Of a stretch of DNA of 64,000 nt, positions 9,826 to 64,000 are shown piece after piece. The position numbers and the translations under genes were made by a program. The notes under the pieces are model-generated. The model was not told the DNA's origin. It was given only the letters and a program-made list of their open reading frames with translations, and made no database searches. Within the stretch, counting starts at the first letter, position 1. Each line of letters starts with the position of its first letter. Source of the stretch: Opitutales bacterium (lineage in GTDB: Bacteria > Verrucomicrobiota > Verrucomicrobiia > Opitutales > PNEW01); the NCBI GenBank assembly GCA_965197745.1, contig CBDANS010000007.1, forward strand, positions 736,001 through 800,000. Direction: 5' to 3'.

Positions 9826-10164
9826 TGTCATTGCGAGGGAGGTTATCAGCCGACCGCGGCTACCGAGCGCAGCGACATCTTCCATTCCAGGCGAATAGTC
9901 ATTGTGCTTACGGATTCCAGCTTCCGCTCAGATCTTACTTATGAGGGTGCGTATCATGATTTCTAATTATAAGTAGATAATATTATTAAAACATTCCAGC
10001 GACAGCCGAGGATGAGGATGATCGTGGCCGCTTAAAACATGGGTAACTAATTGTACAATGTAGATCGGCAATTGTATTACTTAGTGAAGCCTTGCATGCA
10101 GGGCCTGTAATTATGCAATAGACATCCCCCTGGATTGCTTCGTCGTTTCACTCCTCGCAATGAC
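9826..10164. repeat. Inverted pair of GTCATTGCGAG-type REP-like units
   Basis: TGTCATTGCGAGG at 9826 and GGATTGCTTCG...CTCGCAATGAC at 10132-10164. Confidence 0.7.
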
Positions 10165-34801: not shown

Positions 34802-36152
34802 TGATCGGACCCCGTATTTCGTATCAAATTTTAAGTGAGAGAACTACCGGGTGTTAATGGTTTTAGGATTGATGTATATGAGAGATCTTGGCGCAGTGAG
34901 GGCGTAGCCCGAACGCGGCCAAGAGCGGAAAGGAATGTGACAAACTCTTGTGGGCTTTTAAAGCCTAATCGACTGTGGGGATGTTCATTGTTATAGGTCT
35001 GACGCCATTGTTCTATTAGCACTTGCGCTTCAGCCACGCTGAGCAACACTTCACGGTTCAAACACTCATCGCGTAAGCGGTTGTGAAACGACTCGATGAA
35101 ACCGTTTTGCCAGGGACTGCCCGGATCGATATATATCGCCTTGATCTTTTTGTCGGACAACCACTGCTGCACCTGATGAGCAATGAATGGCTTCGCATGT
35201 CGTCGCTTCGCTCCTCGGAACACTGCCGTTGTCACTGCGGATATAGCTAGGAACTCCCTCTTCATCGATGGTTTCGCTGAGTACCGAGAGAACATCGGTT
35301 GAGGTGAGCTGTCGAGCTACCCGGATGCGTAAACATTTACGCGTATATGTCTTCGCTTCGCTTGAGTGTCGTCGCTTTCAGCTCCTCGGTACATCGATCA
35401 AGGTCATCATCTTTAGCATACCGCCATTGTCTGTACGATCATGGACAAAGTCCCAGGACCAGACGTGATTGCGACCGGTTGCTTTAGTAGGGAGCCCAGT
35501 AGAGATCCCCTGACGGTGTCTACGCTTTTTCGGTGGCTTTACCTGTAAGCCCGAAGAACGTCGCACTGCCTGTACAAATTTCCTGCTTGCCGCCCAACCT
35601 TCTTTCACCAGCAAGGCACGAATGCGCCGGTAACCGTAACGGGGATGTTCCCAGGACAAGGTCAAAATCCGCTCGGCCAATTGCTGAGCCTTCTTACTGG
35701 CCTGCTTGGGTCGGTAGCTGTACGTTGACCAACTGAGGCTGAGATAAGCACAAGCCCTCTAAAACGAGCACAGCCCCTTCTCAGCCGCATCTTTTACTGC
35801 TCGCTTCTTCTGCTTTGGGCTCACCATTTTTTTGAGAGCGTTTCCTCCAACACCCGAAGCTTGAGCATTTGATCAGCGAGCATCTTCTTCAGCTCCGTAT
35901 TCTCCTTTTCCAGCTCTTTAAATCGCTTCGCATCAGCCAGCTCCAAGTTGCCATACTTTTTGCCCCAGCGATAGAAGGTCTGTTCACTTAGGTTGTTGCC
36001 GTGGCAGACTTCCTGCACGGTTTTGCCCGTATCGGGCTGCCGCAGTATTGCTATGATCTGTTCTGTTGTATATCTTTTTCTTTTCATTGAGGTTATCTGT
36101 TTATCCCGATAACCTCTCTCTGTTAATGATACCATTTTTGGGGGTCACTCCA
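34802..36152 (-). mobile_element. Degenerate IS3-family insertion sequence
   Basis: Imperfect IRs TGATCGGACCCC..GTATCA / TGGAGTGACCCC..GTATCA. OrfA MKRKRYTTEQII..KKW with an A7 run. OrfB with WSWDF, SDNG and PWQNGFIESF, broken by a TAG and two short inserts. Confidence 0.92.
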
Positions 36153-37430
36153 CCTGCAATTACATTGCTGAAAAAGCTGTTTCTGCTCCTGCCCTGGATC
36201 CTCGCGGGAATCTTTATGCTTATCAGCATTCTTAACCCGGCTTACGAGAGATATTTTTTACCCAATACTCAAGACGCTTTTCGAAGAATAGATTACAATA
36301 ATTTATTACCCTCAACGGTAGATGTGGTGCGAACAACAGAGAAAGTTTCACTCTTAACCGGTGTGATGGCGCTCTCTGTTGCCTTGTTCTATCTCGTGCG
36401 TCGAAGACGGGATATACGTCTTATACTGAATATCATCTTCATCAACAGCCTTGTCTTAGGCATTGTCGGTACGGTGTTTAACCTGATGGGAACTGACCGT
36501 ATTCTTGGAATGTTTGATCCCGTCAATACCATGTTTTTTTCCAGTTTTCGCTACCACAACCACTGGGCTGGGTTTACTCTCCTTTGCCTTGGTGTGGGGC
36601 TGGCGCTTTACAGCTACTATCACAGTAAAGACGATGCCAGGAAAAGTCGGTCTCGTACATCCACTTTTTTTCTCGGGATGTTATTTTTTTTAGCGTTGAG
36701 TATCCCTTTATCGGGGGGGCGCACGGGCATGCTTCTGCTAATTGTCATGGGGGTATTATTTTTCTTCAGGCTTTGGTGGAGTGAAATTCAAAAGCGCCGA
36801 AGGGGATATCACAGAAGATACTTATTAACTAAGTTAGTCGCAGTCGTCACTGTCGTCATGGTCGTCACCTGGCTGATTTATCAACTCGGTGAGGAGATGA
36901 TCCAAGTTCGCTGGGAAAAATCGATTCATCAGTATGAAGATATATTAAGGGGTGAGGCAATGGAAATGCGGGTATATTCCACACGTGACACACAGGGTAT
37001 GGCGTTGGACAAACCCTGGTGGGGTTGGGGTTTAGGTTCTTTTACCTACGCTTTTAAACTTTATGCGGGACCTGAGTTCTACCGTGGAAAACACTATTTA
37101 CGCATGGAGTTCGCCCACCAGGACTGGCTGCAGTATTGGGCCGAATTGGGGACTGTGGGTTTTGCCGCCTTGTTAGCTCTCCCCGTATTCATTGTCATTA
37201 TTGTTTTGAGACGAGGAAAGTCCAACCCGGTTACGGGCTGGCTAGCGGTCGGTTGCGGCCTGATCCTCGTAATGGCTTGTTTTGAATTCCCCCTGAGCAA
37301 CCCGGCGATTATCGCCCTGTTTTTTATACTCGGAACTCTCGCCGCGAAGTATGCGTTATTAGAAAGTCAAATGTCAAAGGTCGAAGGTCGAAGGCGGGAT
37401 GGGGAAATGGGTGAAAGCGATAAAGGGTGA
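36153..37430 (+). pseudogene. O-antigen ligase-like membrane protein, probably 5'-truncated by the IS3
   Basis: SGGRTG, GWGLGSF, AHQDWLQ..AELG; the first ~29 codons of the track ORF lie inside the IS. Confidence 0.8.
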
Positions 37431-42797: not shown

Positions 42798-43025
42798 TTA
42801 AACCCAAAATTAATATCCGCGATATTCGCGTCATCCGCGGTAAGATCTTGCTGTTTATTTTTGTGCCTCTTGCCTGCCGGTCATAGTCCCGCCACTGGGG
42901 GACGACGGTTGGTGCCTTTGAAAGATGTCGTCCCGGTGTCGCGGGACTCGGTAGTGGCTATCTTAAAAAAACCACAGCAGTGAATGTTACTGAAATAAAA
43001 GTTAAAGAATGGGCTATTTTAACTT

Positions 43026-62998: not shown

Positions 62999-63850
62999 AT
63001 GGCTCTAATATACACCGATTCAAAACATGATGTTCTCGATGGTGAAAAAAATGCATCATGTGATCAGCAAAACCCCAGTACCCCACATCAATTGAATAAG
63101 GGTAGCCGACGTAAAAGGTTTTCTTTAAAGAAGAAACTCCTTTTTTCTGTCATTGTCGCTGGGTTATTTTTCGGAAGTCTTGAGTTTGTCTGTTTTCTTA
63201 CCAAGTCTCTCTATATTAATTTTCGCAAACTTGGTTTACCCGCATATGCGGTTAATTACATGCCAAGTACGATTAAATACACGCTTCGCGAAAACGTGCT
63301 TTCTAAACCGGACAAAGAACTTTTATTTCGAGTAGAGCAAAACCCATCAGGTTTATCTATGCAGGGTTATTCTGGAATTAATGCACATGGCTTTCGCGGT
63401 AATATTTATGATCCGAGTCTTATAAATAAAGATGAGACAAAAATTATGATTCTTGGTGACTCCTGTGCCTTCGGGTGGGGTATACGGGATTATGGACTTA
63501 CATTTCAGTCGATATTGGAAAAACGGTTAAATCAACGGCAATGTGACTATAAAGTTTATAACTTTTCACAACCCGGATACAGTTCCAGTCAGGGAAGAAT
63601 AATATTTGAAAAATGGTTCTCTAGAGTCAGTCCCGATCTTCTTATAATTTATTTAGGGTGGAATGATATCTGGGAAACACCGCTATTAACGGATAGCCAG
63701 AATCTTAATCTATTTAAATACACAAAAAAAACCCCCTTTAAGTGGATTCAAAAATCTCACACTTACCTGGCATTTGAATCTCTCTATCAATCGTTAATAA
63801 AACCAAGTGGTGAGTATGCAGATATCAAAAATAAAAAATTAAGAGTCTGA
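62999..63850 (+). pseudogene. SGNH/GDSL hydrolase, 3'-truncated by IS3
   Basis: LGDS, PGYSS and GWND present, DxxH block absent; the stop TGA is the first 3 nt of the IS end. Confidence 0.8.
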
Positions 63851-64000
63851 TTGGACCCCGTTTTTCGTACCAATTATTAAGTGAGAGAGTTCCCGGGTAT
63901 TAATGGTTTTAGGATTGATGTATATGAGAGATCTTGGCGAAGTGAGGGCGTAGCCCGAACGCGGCCAAGATCTGAAAGGAATGTGACAAACTCTTGTGGG
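63848..64000 (-). mobile_element. End of a second IS3 copy, continues past window end
   Basis: Aligns with 34802-34955 in the same orientation. Confidence 0.9.

Follow-up and report, generated by a model that had tools for sequence, protein, structure and literature searches.

The IS3 element and its two inserts

The DNA analyzed here (the window) is a stretch of 64,000 nucleotides from an Opitutales bacterium (GenBank assembly GCA_965197745.1, contig CBDANS010000007.1, positions 736,001 to 800,000 of the forward strand). On its minus strand we found an insertion sequence (IS) of the IS3 family in which the transposase reading frame orfB is interrupted by two short segments related to each other. 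Both had been reported in a first-pass annotation made from the letters alone, at 35349-35391 and 35189-35220, and both are present in the sequence. The element and its parts, all on the minus strand, are laid out as follows.

34802..36152, minus strand: IS3-family insertion sequence, subfamily A, IS407-like layout, 1351 bp (BLAST, ends located)
35821..36135, minus strand: orfA, 104 aa, HTH_Tnp_1 (Pfam)
35393..35758, minus strand: OrfB fragment 1, 122 codons, HTH_21 ... WSWDFVHD ... LKMMTLID, reaching insert 1
35348..35391, minus strand: insert 1 (variant e), TACCGAGGAGCTGAAAGCGACGACACTCAAGCGAAGCGAAGA-CA, 44 nt, replacing the AA of a GAA (Glu) codon, net +42
35222..35347, minus strand: OrfB fragment 2, 42 codons, YTRKCL ... 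YIRSDNGS, between inserts 1 and 2
35188..35220, minus strand: insert 2 (variant f), TTCCGAGGAGCGAAGCGACGACATGCGAAGC-CA, 33 nt, replacing the AG of a GAG (Glu) codon, net +31
34831..35187, minus strand: OrfB fragment 3, 118 codons and stop, FIAHQV ... PGSPWQNGFIESFH ..., rve_3

The host element is an ordinary member of the IS3 family. The ends of the window element, which belongs to subfamily A, are TGGAGTGACCCCC... and ...GGGGTCCGATCA, and the imperfect terminal inverted repeats are of the 5'-TG...CA-3' type (TGGAGTGACC... / ...GGTCCGATCA). In the window copy, Pfam recognizes HTH_Tnp_1 (E 1.8e-19), HTH_21 (E 3.9e-10), and rve_3 (E 6.2e-26). A run of seven adenines (A7, 35827-35833) is followed by TGG TGA, the latter being the stop codon of orfA, and orfB is open in the -1 frame; judging from this arrangement, the A7 run is predicted to be the usual site of -1 frameshifting from orfA into orfB.

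Under the standard genetic code, OrfB of the window copy is broken twice. Insert 1 (minus strand: ..TTGATCGATG[TACCGAGGAGCTGAAAGCGACGACACTCAAGCGAAGCGAAGAC]ATATACGCGT..) follows ..MMTLID within the codon motif LID-E-YTR and brings an in-frame TGA at 35380-35378, where the open reading frame (ORF) 35378..35680 terminates after ..MMTLIDVPRS. Insert 2 (minus strand: ..GGCAGTG[TTCCGAGGAGCGAAGCGACGACATGCGAAGCC]ATTCATTGCT..) follows ..IRSDNGS, precedes ATTCATT, and interrupts the motif SDNGS-E-F. Past this point the OrfB reading (FIAHQVQQW..PGSPWQNG..) resumes in another frame, such that fragments 2 and 3 are not in register. By reading the ORFs, we could confirm that the first segment adds a stop codon and that the second shifts the frame, as annotated. 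Since orfA of the same element stops at TGA, we reject an alternative genetic code as an explanation for the TGA in insert 1. Insert 2 holds two GCGAAGC heptamers. The words from which the inserts are built are over-represented: CCGAGGAGC occurs three times in the window (0.39 expected), GCGAAGCGACGAC occurs twice with at most one mismatch (0.07 expected), and AGCGACGACA is found 109 times genome-wide (about 8.5 expected).

Filled and empty sites

To define the junctions of the inserts, we used the 34 full-length copies of the IS that BLAST recovered from the genome under study (G000: 4.45 Mb, seven contigs, 45% G+C), aligned with MAFFT. Insert 1 is absent from 6 of these 34 copies, which read GATG|AA|TATACG at this position, that is, GAT GAA TAT (D-E-Y). 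Insert 2 is absent from two, which read CAGTG|AG|TTCATT, or AGT GAG TTC (S-E-F), and further empty sites for insert 2 occur in copies from the genomes G001 and G002. Two more positions in OrfB are polymorphic: site 3, after TGG C in P-W-Q-N-G, is filled in 10 of the 34 copies, and site 4, after GAT G in R-D-E-C, in eight. All four sites follow the same junction rule, by which the AR of S|AR|W gives way to an element starting T[A/T]CCGAG and ending CA, with net gains of +42, +31, +42, and +35 at the four sites. The TG^AT context given for the inserts in the annotation describes the filled alleles only; the empty sites read TG|AA|TA and TG|AG|TT. Similarly, the annotation had noted that clean excision leaves the codon one base short. 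This mismatch is real, and its cause is the replacement of two nucleotides, AR, by an element ending in CA rather than the loss of one nucleotide.

Contigs assembled from public sequencing runs show the same alternation, with 33 nt in the filled state versus 2 in the empty state, 43 versus 1, 43 versus 1, and 37 versus 2. In contigs of run X1, the 33 nt of insert 2 correspond to CT (plus strand) and the 43 nt of insert 1 to T. Among the runs aligned to the IS, X17 and X19 are metatranscriptomes; the library kind of X1 and X2 is not on record. At each of the four OrfB sites, an identical flank haplotype of 30 + 30 nt is seen in the filled and in the empty state (by approximate counts, since some loci overlap), which establishes the segments as true insertions into coding DNA, as had been proposed. 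Relatives read intact across both motifs without the segments, consistent with the earlier statement that IS3 OrfB is normally ungapped there, and no intact relative carries them. Since every filled allele has CA at its end regardless of the base originally present, the empty AA and AG alleles are not products of excision. Therefore, the recurrent events at these sites are gains.

How often such gains occurred can be read from the comparison of IS subfamilies and lineages. The consensus sequences of subfamilies A and B differ at 152 of 1371 positions overall and at none of the 77 positions within the inserts, an outcome with a probability of about 1e-4 at equal rates. The flanks diverged under purifying selection (nonsynonymous to synonymous ratio dN/dS 0.145 with dS 0.39 for orfB; dN/dS 0.075 for orfA), and so the inserts are not old neutral passengers of a gene that was dead before A and B split. 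The two subfamilies differ within about 10 nt on either side of insert 1, yet the 44-nt insert is identical; because the flanks differ so close by, ordinary conversion tracts fail to explain the shared insert. Insert 2 is also found at the homologous Ser-Glu-Phe codons of IS3 lineages 2 and 3, with 33 of 33 positions identical across lineages, and it is identical in two genomes of another genus too. Around insert 2, BLAST aligns lineage 1 with the others over only about 197 nt at 73-76% identity, from which we derive about 71% for the flanks without the insert, and the bases abutting the insert on the left are lineage-specific (CAGTG, TTCCG, ATCGG).

A maximum-likelihood tree with insert columns neutralized was built from 45 copies, namely the 34 of G000 and 11 distinct sequences among 21 full-length matches (30 loci) in G001 and G002, whose assemblies consist of one and two contigs. 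On this tree, the four sites require at least 5, 3, 6, and 6 changes of state, and nine combinations of states occur among the 45 copies. These data show that gains of the same module variants at the same codons happened more than once, among different subfamilies, in deeper IS3 lineages, and also in the two sister genomes. Given that this recurrence spans diverged IS3 lineages, passive accumulation alone is no explanation. The route by which the variants recur is, we infer, either site-specific insertion or the copying of very short patches between IS copies. The empty target of lineage 2 reads GGTTCCGAGTTC and natively contains TTCCGAG, the same seven bases with which insert 2 begins.

We then turned to the question of how the broken element multiplied. 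Both inserts are present in all 14 copies that are more than 98% identical (subfamily A) and in all nine copies at 89.7% identity (subfamily B). Six of the 31 copies with recognizable ends, three from each subfamily, are flanked by a 4-bp target duplication (about 0.1 expected). Point variants within the inserts are inherited by subfamily: about 12 lineage-2 copies have TGCAAAGCC, and four subfamily-B copies have GAAGCC. Near-identical copies with inserts, target duplications, and inherited variants together indicate that filled copies templated many transpositions. The end of one further copy lies in the window itself:

63848..64000, minus strand: right end of a second IS copy, subfamily B, 89.6% identical, leaving the window

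Alignment with this copy had been suggested as a way to define the pre-insertion sequence. The alignment was done, and the complete copy (G000, C7:799848-801197) proved to carry both inserts as well, together with a 4-bp target duplication (GACT); the empty sites came from other copies. The window copy at 34802-36152 has no target duplication at its ends. It is adjoined by a long membrane protein (ORF 36066-37430, plus strand) that starts within the end of the IS. Recombination between copies of the IS may have brought the two flanks together; alternatively, the membrane-protein gene may be 5'-truncated.

When the OrfB fragments, linked by X, served as a tblastn query, only one class of uninterrupted relative was returned, consisting of four near-identical lineage-2 copies in G000:

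C7:1901266-1902552: uninterrupted lineage-2 copy
C4:136857-138146: uninterrupted lineage-2 copy
C7:1352649-1353939: uninterrupted lineage-2 copy
C7:406740-408025: uninterrupted lineage-2 copy

These copies share 48% protein identity with the query and are empty at sites 1 and 2. About 30 other lineage-2 copies differ from them essentially by insert 2 (97.3% and 91.9% identity, with a 31-nt gap), and the inverted repeats of lineage 2 are similar to those of lineage 1.

The dispersed module family and candidate enzymes

The inserts belong to a family of modules of 24-44 nt that read 5'-T[A/T]CCGAG, continue with a mini-hairpin of C-GNA-G type or longer and with GAC(G)ACA..., and end in CA. The two ends, T[A/T]CCGAG and ...CA, do not form an inverted repeat, and two target bases are replaced and none duplicated. 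A regular expression for this family (T[AT]CCGAG, 4-16 nt, GACGACA/GACATC-type) has 226 matches in G000 and one in the reversed genome that served as a control, in agreement with the earlier assignment of the segments to a repeat family. The short form of the module (24-35 nt: TACCGAG, a variable palindromic core, and (C)GACATCTTCCA) accounts for 100 matches (control: 2). Its cores are highly variable, with 70 distinct ones among the 100 copies, and retain hairpin symmetry. Stems of at least 4 bp are formed by 34 of the 100 copies compared to 87 of 2000 shuffles, and another 48 copies have GC-NNN-GC; stem lengths range from 2 to 7 bp, with 2 bp in 48 of 100. With the element removed, 10 of the 100 short-form sites fall within a spanning ORF of at least 200 codons, compared to 767 of 1000 random positions. 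This intergenic bias fits survival only where insertion is tolerated. Two short-form members lie in the window:

9861..9884, plus strand: TACCGAGCGCAGCGACATCTTCCA, inside a larger repeat starting TGTCATTGCGAG at 9826
42920..42953, minus strand: member with a 6-7-bp hairpin, TACCGAG-TCCCGCGACACCGGGA-CGACATCTTTCA

The long variants in IS3 combine the GACGACA core with a second GCGAAGC. Outside IS3, the only long variants in G000 are found in three repeats that resemble 3' halves of tRNA. The exact sequence of insert 2 (at most three mismatches) has 73 copies in G000 and 12 and 14 copies in two genomes of a sister genus, and thus occurs in three of the 41 genomes searched; among species representatives, it is present in one Opitutales metagenome-assembled genome. 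A survey of 151 Opitutales genomes identified nine, over five families, that contain 11-143 copies of the short form (controls 0-1), the others being at background. The annotation had left open whether the inserts target mobile DNA or simply accumulate in dead genes. The answer is mixed: the short form is overwhelmingly intergenic, and the long form borne by IS3 recurs at the same codons.

Several other sequence contexts of these modules were observed. Many short-form modules are embedded in AATC(C/G)(G/A)C-type heptamers repeated in tandem, and their position there is invariably ..AATC(C)G|..|(A)AATC.. (for example C6:562560-562640, C6:1235000-1235060, and C7:1472000-1472060). Partial copies of tRNA 3' halves ending ..CCGGGCAGCCA are located at G000:C6:355530-355720 (locus L010, 730-900) and C5:236530-236620 (locus L011, 630-720). 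The tRNAs upstream of these two loci are tRNA-Asn and tRNA-Gln, and each partial copy repeats the 3' half of its own tRNA. At the position of the T-loop (TTCG|..|TCCATCC), both contain a module of the long form, and several metagenome contigs show similar contexts. We rejected the idea of an intron in the T-loop, since 116 boundary removals at each of ten metagenome loci (two of them partly cut) produced no tRNA recognized by ARAGORN. These loci are fragments resembling tRNA 3' halves, not interrupted tRNA genes, and Rfam returned only tRNAs and a sub-threshold RtT match around the tRNA-linked copies.

A second family of micro-inserts shares this architecture but has other arms (TTCACGAG, a GC-ACA-GC-type hairpin, and CGAGAAGGCCTGA, 27-28 nt). 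It is found in G000 at C6:1197766-1197793, C6:182475-182502, and C7:976425-976452, and in G002 within orfA of about 30 amplified IS copies (loci L027/L043). The 3' half of the site-3 insert resembles this second family, which suggests that the inserts are modular composites. Eight contigs from different metagenomes (loci L068, L077, L098, L108, L114, L131, L150, L154) share a long conserved hairpin, ..TAACATTTGCTTAACCTGCGAGGCG..GGCGCGATTCTTG [CCGAGGAGC-GNA-GCGACGACA] AGCAAGAATCGTGAC..GGTTGAAGCAGTTGTTA. Since the 21-nt core of the long-form module forms the tip of this hairpin, the core is not confined to Opitutales. The pattern scan of 120 metagenome loci consists largely of chance coding matches (AEEL.CDD in high-GC genes) with a minority of true modules, and we draw no inference on habitat or taxon from it. 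A search for a parent element, using GACATC[TC]..CA ends without a nearby TACCGAG, found 58 orphans (control: 15), mostly degenerate short copies, and no long element.

Two kinds of genes were considered as sources of an enzyme that may move the modules. G000 contains five small GIY-YIG genes, among them genes for single-domain proteins of 97 aa; the proteins match Pfam GIY-YIG and have the UPF0213 protein PDB 1ZG2 as the nearest solved structure (E 1.5e-5). Upstream of three of the five genes, at a distance of 60-90 nt, a module lies within an arm starting TGTCATTGCGAGGAG...; downstream follows an inverted arm without a module. What look like nuclease mini-elements of about 450 bp are located at C7:1541900-1542350 (plus), C7:1545550-1546000 (minus), C6:787700-788400 (minus), and C7:483500-483900 (minus) in G000, and the repeat at 9826 in the window is grouped with these loci. 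The head TGTCATTGCGAGGAG occurs 111 times in G000, mostly in hairpin derivatives without a gene, and the gene-less hairpin of two TGTCATTGCGAGGAG arms is the larger repeat that houses most short-form modules. Of these larger repeats, at least 56 hold a module and about 35 have the empty form (..GC|AA|TCCAGG). A GIY-YIG homologue in G001 has a module at a distance of 32 nt. The other candidate is a Y1_Tnp gene, in the manner of REP-associated tyrosine transposases (RAYTs; REP, repetitive extragenic palindrome). We rejected the RAYT hypothesis because the Y1 gene is not flanked by modules, its phyletic link to them is unspecific, and its adjacency to them in the genome G040 is near chance (2 of 46 Y1 matches with a module, at the same 985-nt offset).

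Interpretation and comparison with known systems

The explanation that we favor, at a probability of roughly 0.6, is that the window copy carries two micro-insertions akin to REPs and to Ssn-related motifs (SRMs), that they disrupt OrfB of an IS3 that has become non-autonomous, and that such insertions were gained repeatedly and in a site-specific manner. Each insertion replaced the AR of a Glu codon in the DDE core of IS3 OrfB, and we take the inserted DNA for an ultra-small module without genes that entered the IS secondarily. The IS with its inserts would be moved in trans by a related IS3 transposase, for which the four uninterrupted lineage-2 copies are one candidate. The module itself would be moved or copied in trans by a host enzyme acting on single-stranded hairpin DNA. 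The best candidates for this role may be the 97-aa GIY-YIG nucleases that have the module in their own terminal inverted repeats or, failing that, a Y1 (IS200-like) transposase; cutting and repair of the target could have left the footprint seen as a replacement of 2 nt at S|AR|W. A more ambitious version of this proposal is speculative and on balance unlikely. It holds that the long-form modules are homing-like "transposase breakers" with variant-specific codon sites in the DDE core, written time after time into empty IS3 copies of different lineages and genomes by an enzyme that cuts S|AR|W and copies the module in. If this were true, transposase breakers would be either selfish hyper-parasites of insertion sequences or a brake that serves the host, the breaking might be reversible via recombination between differently hit copies, and the modules would be the first REP/SRM-type repeat whose spread can be traced event by event.

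A number of observations weigh against the favored explanation. No copy of this IS lineage is free of inserts among the 45 from G000, G001, and G002, and consequently a helper acting in trans must be a transposase of only 48% identity. IS3 transposases are known to prefer acting in cis. In the uninterrupted lineage-2 copies, the reading frame leads from the orfA helix-turn-helix directly into the DDE domain, leaving a leucine-zipper stretch and an A8 slippery site out of frame; these copies either make a fused transposase constitutively or are frameshift mutants. The annotation had called the inserts hairpins, and this applies to the GC-GAA-GC-type mini-hairpin words that are all they hold; nearest-neighbor DNA folding of inserts 1 and 2 gave -1.1 to -1.6 kcal/mol (z +1.2 to +1.8), no better than shuffles. 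The published SRM search pattern had 16 matches compared to 19 in a reversed control, none of them in the module family. The candidate enzymes do not track the modules closely. A GIY-YIG homologue is present in only four of the nine module-rich genomes; G040, with its 142 modules, is among those in which this query did not find one. All nine have Y1_Tnp, but so do 78 of the 151 genomes overall, so its presence is unspecific; the 3.3-kb locus of the single Y1_Tnp gene of G000 does not contain TACCGAG. Single-strand transposition of the IS200/IS605 type has a replication-strand bias. The short form has none in G000 (20 plus and 22 minus on C7, 27 and 22 on C6). Finally, recombination among IS copies is evident and could account for part of the apparent recurrence: dS between A and B is 0.14 in the last third compared to 0.56-0.90 in the earlier segments, and in two chimeric IS3 copies (G000 C7:1673285-1674708 and G001 locus L006), whose left and right halves come from different IS3 lineages, the crossover lies exactly at insert 2, which seems to have served as a recombination patch or site.

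This last point leads to the strongest competing account, namely that each site was hit once and that exchange among the copies, by homologous recombination or gene conversion, later redistributed the two states, with no site-specific targeting. The mosaic divergence of A and B and the two chimeras favor this account, as do the nine state combinations, the presence of one and the same variant at each site, and the fact that point mutations of the variants travel with the subfamilies. On the other hand, the differences within about 10 nt of insert 1 would require conversion tracts shorter than about 65 nt, lineages 1-3 keep their own bases directly against insert 2, and flanks of about 71% identity are a poor substrate for homologous exchange. 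We regard this account as rather unlikely. The idea that the segments are native to this IS3 clade, conserved for some function, and that the empty copies are deletions has very little probability. The absence of any difference between A and B within the inserts, compared to 11% overall, and the perfect conservation of insert 2 across lineages would suit it. However, the empty sites are perfect Glu or Gln codons of the IS3 motifs DEYTR, SDNGSEF, and PWQNG, an allele ending in CA cannot regenerate AA or AG, the same flank haplotypes occur in both states, and the family to which the segments belong is mostly intergenic.

It is also conceivable, and in our view improbable, that the inserts are tolerated or by-passed, by read-through of the TGA in insert 1 and by a +1 shift, a hop, or removal at the RNA or DNA level in the case of insert 2; the IS would then be autonomous and the inserts would act as throttles of expression. 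Such an arrangement would account for the multiplication of insert-bearing subfamilies in three genomes without a single insert-free copy, and for purifying selection on the flanks. Insert 1 has a net length divisible by three and a single stop, both frames are open across insert 2, and both inserts start with a GAGGAG that resembles a Shine-Dalgarno sequence. Moreover, the amplified subfamilies are filled only at sites 1 and 2 and at a site in orfA, and sites 3 and 4 are filled only in degenerate single copies. This account has to contend with the four net lengths, which no single mechanism accommodates, and with the position of the inserts within the DDE core. Removal of whole elements leaves the frame unrestored, and slippery sites or matched take-off and landing codons are not visible by eye. 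Rfam returned no match at E <=1 in the window segment 34700-36300, and thus no self-splicing intron or known structured RNA. Contigs from X17 and X19 cover both positions with the inserts retained (site 1 in record 14, site 2 in record 13) and show no skip joint. For this reason we rejected removal at the RNA level; the evidence is weak, as these are contigs in which rare forms are lost and which may derive from DNA. The lineage-2 copies furthermore provide a helper candidate for a non-autonomous element.

The spread of REP, SRM, and small dispersed repeat (SDR) micro-repeats is a long-standing question, as most copies reside in intergenic DNA that cannot be compared and their junctions are rarely visible. 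A multi-copy IS yields dozens of exact filled/empty pairs at four sites. These pairs provide a defined junction, repeated acquisition at the same codons, and a physical link to GIY-YIG nuclease mini-elements, and so offer a clean natural case for how ultra-small repeats move. They also present insertion sequences that are inactivated by still smaller mobile DNA while multiplying, which bears on the control of IS load in symbiont-type genomes.

Among known systems, the closest relatives are the REPs tagged with CGTC or TGTC, a superfamily that corresponds to the SRMs and includes NTS/dRS3 of Neisseria (PMC3733652, Di Nocera et al. 2013; PMC11893778, Chenal et al. 2025). Ssn proteins are single-domain GIY-YIG nucleases of about 94 aa that belong to cd10448 and cut single-stranded DNA beside such repeat motifs, and the repeat flanks their genes on both sides (PMC11893778). 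REP-type repeats within genes are known, and the Rickettsia palindromic elements (RPEs) RPE-6 and RPE-4 are CGTC-1 and CGTC-4 (PMC3733652). A dedicated transposase for the superfamily is not reported in the portions of these two papers considered here (PMC3733652, PMC11893778). Reminiscent of CGTC-REP and NTS, the opposite strand of the module consists of (T/C)GTC(G), a stem-loop, a C, and a short tail, and some module stems are TCCCGC/GCGGGA as in NTS. The modules share with CGTC-REP and SRM a high copy number, a defined orientation, a mostly extragenic location, and many variants of stem and loop. The small GIY-YIG genes of G000, bracketed by inverted repeats that carry the module, partly recall the Ssn/SRM architecture as presented in the part of PMC11893778 considered here. 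CGTC-REP has an 8-9-bp stem with A/T in the first two pairs, a 4-5-nt loop, and a CCA tail, whereas the stems of the module measure 2-7 bp and its CCA is found on the opposite arm, at the distal end. On the reverse strand, the sequence is ..ATGTCG-stem.. or ..TGTCGTC-GCTTCGC.., such that a tag-like TGTC/CGTC is offset by one base from the CGTC-REP tag and lies in a longer conserved arm; the described CGTC-REP/SRM families have shorter conserved arms than the TACCGAG and GACATCTTCCA of the module. Recurrence at fixed transposase codons and a 2-nt replacement junction set the inserts apart from the accounts in PMC3733652 and PMC11893778, in the portions considered here.

With REP/REPIN-RAYT systems and the palindrome-associated transposable elements (PATEs) of IS200/IS605, the modules have in common that they are short hairpin repeats, lack both terminal inverted repeats and a target duplication, would be mobilized in trans, and are mainly intergenic. 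As in RAYT systems, each module-rich genome has a Y1_Tnp gene. Unlike in REP/RAYT, the module lacks a GTAG tag, occurs singly rather than as inverted doublets, and does not flank the Y1 gene. IS200/IS605 elements differ in having a fixed 5' target of 4-5 nt, where the left flanks of the module vary (ATG, GTG, CCG, CGG, GGC, TAC) and no strand bias is seen. Unlike a miniature inverted-repeat transposable element, the module has neither terminal inverted repeats nor a target-site duplication. The SDRs of Nostocaceae are similarly mobile, shorter than about 30 nt, and found at fixed sites in other repeats (SDR5 into HIP1) and occasionally in genes (PMC5861425, in the part considered here). They belong to another host phylum and have other sequences. 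We know of no report of an SDR insertion into catalytic codons of a transposase.

RPEs are palindromic repeats of the CGTC-REP superfamily and, like the inserts, lie inside protein-coding genes. They are longer and keep the frame, and their host proteins stay functional. In the present case, two of the four OrfB sites are shifted in frame, and one frame-preserving insert contains a stop. Programmed bypass, as in gene 60 of phage T4 or the mobile "byps" of Magnusiomyces mitochondria, involves coding insertions of 27-55 nt in genes that are seemingly active. Unlike these bypass elements, the inserts lack matched take-off and landing codons, have uneven net lengths, and are retained in contigs from RNA libraries. 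In the literature searched, supplements excluded (among them Additional file 3 of PMC3733652 on intragenic REPs), we did not find a description of this family or of REP-like inserts that recur in transposase codons. Relative to that literature, the combination that appears new consists of modules of 24-44 nt that replace two bases, their recurrence at fixed codons in the catalytic core of transposases, and a broken IS that still multiplies.

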